DNA of 6,510 nt. It comes from Escherichia coli (lineage in GTDB: Bacteria; Pseudomonadota; Gammaproteobacteria; Enterobacterales; Enterobacteriaceae). Position numbers and translations under genes: made by a program. The number at the start of each line of letters is the position of its first letter. The stretch's first letter is position 1. Below, piece by piece: positions 2,364 to 2,902 of this stretch. The DNA lies in NCBI RefSeq assembly GCF_003334335.1, contig NZ_QOWQ01000075.1, one strand, 5' to 3'. Under the pieces are notes generated by a model. It ran no database searches and was not told the origin of the DNA. It saw nothing but the letters and a program-made list of their open reading frames with translations.

Positions 2364-2902
2364 AAACGGGGGCCGAAGCCATCCGGGCGCTGGCCACACA
2401 GCTCCCGGCGTTTCGCCAGAAACTGAATGAGGGCTGGTATCAGGTGCGCATTGCCGGGCGTGATGCAGGCGAAAACGAATTATCTGCCCGTCTTAATGAG
2501 CCGCTGGCAAATGGTGCCGTGATCCACATCGTACCGCGTCTGGCGGGTGCCAAAAGTGGTGGTGTTTTTCAGGCAGTGCTGGGTGCGGCGCTGATTGCTA
2601 CGGCAATCTGGATGCCAGGAATCAGTATCGCTTTCAGTAACATTCTCTTTTCTATGGGGGCAGCGATGACGCTTGGTGGTGTCGCACAGATGCTGGCCCC
2701 TAAACCCAAAACTCCACGTACACAGACAACGGATAACGGCAAACAGAACACCTATTTCTCCTCACTGGATAACATGGTTGCCCAGGGCAATGTCCTGCCT
2801 GTTCTGTACGGTGAAATGCGCGTGGGGTCACGTGTGGCATCTCAGGAGATCAGCACGGCAGATGAAGGGGATGGTGGTCAGGTTGTGGTAATTGGGCGGT
2901 AA
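2261..2902 (+). CDS. I: Tail tip assembly protein I (N-terminal ubiquitin-like domain, C-terminal Gly/Ala-rich hydrophobic segment)
   Basis: 213-aa ORF starting MAATHTLPLASPGMARICLYGDLQRFGRRIDLRVKTGAEAIRALATQLPAFRQKL... and ending ...SQEISTADEGDGGQVVVIGR, matching lambda gpI as I recall. GAGAGG at 2243-2248 upstream of ATG 2261. Begins 103 nt inside the 3' end of K in a different frame, the same arrangement as the lambda K/I overlap as I recall it. Stop TAA 2900-2902. Confidence 0.9.
   Translation: MAATHTLPLASPGMARICLYGDLQRFGRRIDLRVKTGAEAIRALATQLPAFRQKLNEGWYQVRIAGRDAGENELSARLNEPLANGAVIHIVPRLAGAKSGGVFQAVLGAALIATAIWMPGISIAFSNILFSMGAAMTLGGVAQMLAPKPKTPRTQTTDNGKQNTYFSSLDNMVAQGNVLPVLYGEMRVGSRVASQEISTADEGDGGQVVVIGR

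Follow-up and report, generated by a model that had tools for sequence, protein, structure and literature searches.

Predicted hydrophobic helical hairpin with a length-variable connector in the tail-tip protein gpI of a lambda-like Escherichia coli prophage

Gene I of a lambda-like prophage of Escherichia coli encodes a protein of 213 amino acids, in the C-terminal half of which lies a long, apolar stretch rich in glycine and alanine. What is this stretch, a flexible linker, a membrane segment or a structural element of the phage tail tip? The first-pass annotation of the locus had called it transmembrane-like, in a protein regarded as a tail assembly factor, and had suggested a length-variable linker which would probably account for the difference between the 213 residues of this protein and the 223 residues of lambda gpI.

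Iyer, Burroughs and Aravind recognised in 2006 that the N-terminus of gpI is a ThiS/MoaD-like beta-grasp domain with the ubiquitin fold and a conserved C-terminal glycine. They predicted the cleavage of this ubiquitin-like domain, noted I-J fusions and described the stretch under study as a 'glycine-rich linker' (PMC1779556), a description since overtaken by structures. Cryo-EM of lambda revealed three gpI in the tail-tip cone, where they form a tripod or plug below the coiled coil at the C-terminus of the tape-measure protein. There gpI is bound to gpJ by beta-sheet augmentation, and its resolved residues 137-152 are highly hydrophobic (PMC10721106). Ge and Wang divide lambda gpI into an unresolved N-terminal domain, the helices H1 and H2, a plug (residues 159-175) and beta-strands; the protein is seen from residue 101 in the closed state and, once LamB has bound, no further upstream than residue 167. 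For H1 and H2, which TMHMM predicts to be transmembrane, the same authors propose an insertion into the outer membrane (PMC11101478). The C-terminal region threads through the gpJ hub domains (PMC11101478, PMC10721106). The 'insertion protein' gp34 of phage T1 is a trimeric tripod under the tape-measure coiled coil in the lumen of the tip (PMC11945409). The name tail assembly factor is outdated in so far as gpI is also a virion component, a trimeric plug of the tail-tip lumen (PMC10721106, PMC11101478, PMC12617516).

In this study, we propose that the stretch is a hydrophobic helix-turn-helix hairpin (H1, connector, H2) of the trimeric gpI insertion/plug protein found in lambda-type siphophage tips, a reading to which we assign a probability of roughly 0.8. 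The feature is real and was rightly located, but it is a published trait of a well-known protein and as such already known. Its value as a discovery is low, the H1/H2 hairpin having been present in lambda cryo-EM since 2023-2024 and its transmembrane-like character having been published. What we add is a modest refinement at the level of the family: helix lengths are essentially fixed, heptad-spaced glycines are invariant, and only the connector is free to vary.

Gene I in the tail-tip module

The window, by which we mean the whole stretch of 6,510 nt that was analysed, is the tail-tip module of a lambda-like prophage of E. coli. E. coli GZ04-0086 and about a dozen further complete genomes carry a prophage of 100% identical sequence beside the ompW/trp region. 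To lambda, the window aligns with 91% nucleotide identity over positions 496-2898 and 94% over 3349-5876. According to the ORF list and the RefSeq annotation, the 3' end of H (25-591) is followed by M (588-917), L (917-1615), K (about 1620-2363, plus strand), I (2261..2902, plus strand), an extra ORF of 112 aa (2975-3313, plus strand) and J, which starts at 3380 on the plus strand and is incomplete, extending past the end of the window. Apart from the extra ORF between I and J, the order H-M-L-K-I-J is that of lambda, with I between K and J. L and the N-terminal part of J are 91-94% identical to lambda at the nucleotide level. The prophage may be defective.

The product of I matches lambda gpI (8iyk_I) over the full length (phmmer, window residues 1-213 to lambda residues 1-223, E=1.4e-107), and the lambda length of 223 aa is confirmed by 8iyk chain I and NC_001416. 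Further matches are T1 gp34 (9l9p_A, E=1e-19) and another solved homologue, 25vf_9. The profile phrog_32 ('tail assembly protein') covers aa 12-204, the Pfam family PF06805 (Lambda_tail_I) matches aa 14-97 only (E=7e-24), and searches of NCBIfam and PADLOC with I gave no matches. RefSeq already holds the exact protein and annotates it as 'tail assembly protein' (WP_000090863.1). PGAP places the start at Met14 (nt 2300, 200 aa); the start by lambda convention lies 13 codons upstream (nt 2261, 213 aa). The protein sequence of these 13 extra N-terminal codons is the same as in lambda, and distant homologues mostly start at the equivalent of Met14. Residues 1-55 are identical to lambda gpI, and between aa 148-213 and the corresponding lambda residues 158-223 only 4 of 66 positions differ.

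On the plus strand, the protein can be divided into six parts. The ubiquitin-like (beta-grasp) N-terminal domain, assigned by PF06805 and the AlphaFold2 (AF2) fold, occupies aa 14-97 (2300..2551). The junction AGAKSGG with the near-invariant G96 and G101 follows at aa 95-101 (2543..2563). It leads into the H1 block at aa 101-117 (2561..2611), GVFQAVLGAALIATAIW, the variable connector or turn MPGISIAFS at aa 118-126 (2612..2638) and the H2 block at aa 127-147 (2639..2701), NILFSMGAAMTLGGVAQMLAP, to which the hydrophobic residues 137-152 of lambda correspond. The remainder, aa 148-213 (2702..2899), is by similarity to lambda and 9e7m the C-terminal plug and beta-strand region; the match of the C-terminal region to 9e7m chains has E=4e-46. 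A minus-strand ORF of 60 aa (2569-2751) overlaps the hydrophobic segment, its sole support being the open frame.

The same gene position and the same parts (ubiquitin-like domain, H1 and H2, C-terminal plug and strands) are found in lambda gpI (8IYK, 8IYL, 8K35, 8XCG, 9E7M). The window protein differs from it in its connector of 9 aa instead of 19, and in aa 64-147, which are encoded on a diverged cassette. T1 gp34 (9L9P) and the TAPI family (PF06805, phrog_32) belong to the same family and conserve the charge-free hairpin, but they are more distant (30-45% identity) and differ in connector lengths and C-terminal extensions.

Gene K encodes a JAB/MPN peptidase domain (Prok-JAB, aa 4-98, E=6.8e-14) joined to NlpC/P60 (NLPC_P60, E=2.4e-12). 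Its translation shows the JAMM-like motif HSHPGGLPWLSEAD, and the gene overlaps I by 103 nt (2261-2363) in a different frame. From its domains, K is probably the processing enzyme for gpI. For lambda, removal of the ubiquitin-like domain by gpK has been communicated in a conference summary, the full publication of which is pending; according to this summary gpI loses the domain once it is part of the tip complex and not before (PMC12908700). The pair resembles ubiquitin/JAB (MPN+) deubiquitinase pairs in that a beta-grasp domain with conserved terminal glycines is encoded beside a JAB gene (K), the product of which is reported to cleave the domain off (PMC1779556, PMC12908700). Unlike in those pairs, the ubiquitin-like domain of the window would be a cis pro-domain of a hydrophobic structural protein and not a conjugated modifier. 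Public databases contain K (NlpC/P60)-I joined proteins of 335-343 aa (P0001, P0029, P0079, P0047), and phrog_28576 (399 positions) models K-I fusions; the joined proteins may be frameshifted prophage genes or miscalls.

The charge-free stretch and its predicted helical blocks

The stretch AGAKSGGVFQ...VAQMLAP comprises aa 95-147 of I and runs from nt 2543 to 2701, within 1-3 nt of the limits first assigned to it (2540-2700). Only one of its 53 residues is charged, and Gly and Ala together make up 38%. The longest run free of D, E, K and R in the whole protein, 49 aa (aa 99-147), lies here, and a run of at least this length arose in 122 of 100,000 shuffles of I. Chance or a compositional artefact is ruled out by this shuffling result together with the family-wide conservation. 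A transmembrane-like character is indicated by a Kyte-Doolittle 19-residue mean which peaks at 1.89, above the classical threshold of 1.6, and is in line with the TMHMM prediction for H1 and H2 of lambda gpI (PMC11101478). On the biological scale of Hessa, in an approximate, position-independent calculation, the sums for the best 19-mers are +2 to +3 kcal/mol. For spontaneous insertion, hydrophobicity on this scale is only marginal, as expected for Gly/Ala-rich helices.

AF2 models of the monomers were built with a 38-sequence alignment. In the window protein, aa 11-90 are modelled with pLDDT 88-95 as mixed strand and helix, consistent with a beta-grasp, and form a compact alpha/beta fold (aa 15-92). 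For the hydrophobic segment two helices of 18 and 23 aa (100-117 and 123-145) are predicted, separated by a short turn (118-122, MPGIS), at a pLDDT of about 60. Applied to lambda gpI, the same procedure placed helices at 100-129 and 137-155 and, between them, a loop of low confidence (130-136). Structure prediction thus returned two helices and a turn with low to moderate confidence, pLDDT in the segment being 45-65 in the window and lambda models. In several lambda maps, gpI is resolved from residue 134/135 onward only, so that H1 and the connector must be loosely ordered at best.

With 3,200 clusters (50% identity) that reach E<=0.001, gpI belongs to a large family. In nearly all of 61 distant full-length homologues the charge-free run is mostly 45-60 aa long (median about 51); the run of 49 in the window is near this median, that of lambda (59) is long. 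Among 38 diverse homologues, the H1 block measures exactly 17 aa in 36, whereas the H2 block always has 21 aa. G108, G133 and G140 are invariant in this set, G96 is present in 37 and G101 in 36. The members of the pairs G101/G108 and G133/G140 are each 7 residues apart, a spacing which puts each pair on one helix face. All length variation resides in the connector, which measures 7-23 aa in the 38 homologues.

These data bear on the idea, taken from the 2006 description and raised again in the first-pass annotation, of a glycine-rich, flexible, low-complexity linker of arbitrary length which tethers the ubiquitin-like to the C-terminal domain. Its composition (38% Gly/Ala), its published description as a linker (PMC1779556), the low to moderate AF2 confidence and an inter-anchor length that differs by allele (39-55 residues in close relatives) all speak for such a linker. 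However, a true linker would be polar, and this stretch reaches a Kyte-Doolittle value of 1.9 without charge. For lambda, the closed-state structure models it as the helices H1 and H2 (PMC11101478), and the prediction for the window protein is helical too. Indels are confined to the connector of 7-23 aa; the 17-aa and the 21-aa block are essentially indel-free and carry the invariant glycines and conserved hydrophobic positions. We regard the linker as improbable and largely refuted, although the term length-variable does apply to the connector. The conservation pattern is the one predicted for two packed helices with a free turn rather than for a linker. It points to the part of gpI that tolerates shortening or exchange, and it provides positions for mutational tests of the proposed insertion into the outer membrane, namely G101, G108, G133 and G140.

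Two lambda-type I proteins of 290 aa, P0114 and P0116, contain an internal tandem duplication of about 100 aa. The repeat comprises the last part of the ubiquitin-like domain and the hairpin in full, which results in two hairpins per protein.

A proposed role in the tail tip

The near-identity to lambda gpI allows the lambda cryo-EM arrangement to be inferred for the window protein. The trimeric lumen plug, the helical nature of H1 and H2 and their loss on receptor binding were shown for lambda and are here transferred by similarity. The tail-tip cone would contain three gpI, whose C-terminal strands interlace with the hub domains of gpJ. Below the coiled coil in which the tape-measure protein ends, the plug would close the tube, with H1 and H2 in the lumen. 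During tip assembly, the JAB protein gpK would remove the ubiquitin-like domain, AGAKSGG (aa 95-101) being the probable region of the cut. With the domain gone, the hairpin, which directly follows it, would stand at the N-terminus of the protein in the virion, and mature gpI would start at or just before H1. The ubiquitin-like domain may then have been a soluble pro-domain for the hydrophobic hairpin.

Upon receptor binding the hub would open, the plug would loosen, and H1 and H2 would leave their position. According to a hypothesis published for lambda (PMC11101478, PMC12617516), they would insert into the host outer membrane and line or anchor the exit channel. What the open-state density of lambda shows is no more than the loss of H1 and H2. 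In the window allele the connector of 9 residues, with its Pro-Gly turn, takes the place of the 19 residues of lambda, the helices keeping the usual family lengths and the invariant glycines.

The same location and job have been ascribed to the plug domain of the T5 baseplate hub protein pb3, a trimeric plug of the tube for which contact with the outer membrane upon opening is assumed (PMC10721106). The T5 plug is an insertion in one large hub protein and not a separate product, it has no ubiquitin-like pro-domain, and the likeness drawn here is one of location and function. As an idea, gpL, gpI and gpJ together have been viewed as the counterpart of the single hub protein pb3 (PMC10721106). 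With its hairpin and plug part (aa 82-199), I also resembles N-terminal sequence of some J-family profiles (phrog_31, central tail fiber J, profile positions 157-276, E=5e-7). This fits the I-J fusions of some phages and is also consistent with the idea of gpL, gpI and gpJ as a pb3 equivalent.

Must the hairpin meet a membrane at all? It could be an internal packing element only, which fills the lumen, holds the C-terminus of the tape-measure protein during assembly and is expelled at infection. We consider this possible, though distinctly less probable than the reading given above. In lambda the helices lie inside the protein cone beside the gpH coiled coil (PMC11101478, PMC10721106), and the C-terminus of gpH which contacts gpI (the last roughly 36 aa of H) is almost identical in the prophage and lambda. 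Invariant glycines at heptad spacing suit tight helix-helix packing as well as a membrane role, and the marginal hydrophobicity on the biological scale keeps a pure packing role a live rival. Yet a charge-free stretch of 45-60 aa, kept across thousands of clusters, exceeds the usual need of packing. The open-state structure points the residues after H1 and H2 toward the outer membrane (PMC11101478), cryo-ET shows an intimate contact of tip and membrane (PMC12617516), and the analogous pb3 plug of T5 is thought to interact with the membrane (PMC10721106).

The transmembrane-like hydropathy would equally agree with a hairpin which anchors gpI in the inner membrane of the producer cell, as a membrane-bound intermediate of tail assembly, and this is the sole point in favour of such an anchor. 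Neither a signal nor topology evidence accompanies it. Lambda tail tips assemble as soluble complexes, and mature gpI sits in a closed protein cone. The hairpin stands behind the soluble ubiquitin-like domain, which gpI is reported to shed at a stage when it already belongs to the tip complex (PMC12908700). An inner membrane anchor is the least probable of the explanations considered here, and very improbable in itself. The hydrophobic hairpin of the lumen plug remains our preferred reading.

The diverged cassette and the neighbouring genes

The length difference between the two proteins lies inside the hydrophobic segment, as had been supposed. Alignment to lambda gpI by phmmer (8iyk_I), by global pairwise comparison and by MAFFT with 38 homologues agrees on a single gap of 10 residues (30 nt) after window aa 123-124, at about nt 2631. 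At the turn, the window reads Trp-Met-Pro-Gly where lambda has Phe-Thr-Ala-Gly plus AWGAAIGAGG. Sliding-window comparison showed that nt 1-165 of I are 93-100% identical to lambda and nt 480-642 at least 90%. Between them, nt about 190-440 (window about 2446-2700, plus strand) reach only 50-65% identity and contain the 30-nt gap. A simple deletion of 30 nt from lambda is ruled out by the position of the gap within this block of ~250 nt, the flanks of which are at least 90% identical. As judged from the sequences, the length difference is an ordinary connector polymorphism, carried by an allelic, recombining cassette.

The cassettes of close relatives form discrete classes, in which the distance from the GG to the LAPK anchor is 39, 42, 43, 45, 46, 53 or 55 residues, and there are hybrids in which a window-type H1 is combined with a lambda-type connector end (e.g. 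P0032, P0120). Both alleles are widespread: when at least 80% coverage was required, 490 complete E. coli genomes contained the window-type cassette and 2,813 the lambda-type. The view that the window allele is common and lambda exceptional holds only partly: with 49 aa, the run comes close to the median length among distant homologues, yet the lambda type is commoner in complete E. coli genomes.

Co-variation of the gpI cassette with the C-terminus of gpH was not seen, the final ~36 aa of H being nearly those of lambda. Since gpL and the N-terminus of gpJ are lambda-like as well, a lambda-like tip accommodates either connector length; the 9-residue Pro-Gly turn occurs naturally in such a tip. 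The H fragment in the window (C-terminal 188 aa) is 87% identical to lambda overall. Its differences cluster at aa 121-153 (window 385-483), where the prophage has GTGSPAQMRRSEGIR... and lambda TPGSMADSRSQASGT..., in a short patch which immediately precedes the conserved terminal helix, the part in contact with gpI.

An insertion of roughly 450 nt separates I and J (2899-3379), where the lambda spacer has only 60 nt. It contains the 112-aa ORF (2975-3313, plus strand), with a lipoprotein-like N-terminus, MNKTILFCTIIALTGC, and the lipobox LTGC. RefSeq lists the product as hypothetical protein (WP_001332187.1). The ORF matches phrog_914 (unknown function, E=7e-33) and has no match in Pfam, NCBIfam or PADLOC; neither megablast nor tblastn found a match for the insertion among 50,697 deposited phage records. 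It occurs in 337 of 5,426 complete E. coli genomes and adjoins a 'tail assembly protein' in all 15 of the records listed. From its sequence features it could be a moron, e.g. a candidate exclusion or surface lipoprotein.

One might view the cassette (about 2446-2700) as a specificity module, the connector classes of which (window-type, 'WWNP'-type and lambda-type) would be selected for a match to the host envelope or for evasion of exclusion functions that block channel formation. The lipoprotein-like gene between I and J might cooperate with such a module. We regard this proposal as improbable. The data show the cassette only as mosaic and length-polymorphic, with lambda-like partners, and an adaptive role is neither supported nor excluded by them.

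Toward the end of the window (5876-6510) the similarity of J to lambda changes. The identity of 94% over 3349-5876 is followed by a part that does not align and then by 76% identity over 6046-6409. This fall in identity after 5876 points to a distal part of the central fibre which is a different allele from that of lambda, and the receptor specificity of J may differ accordingly from that of lambda.
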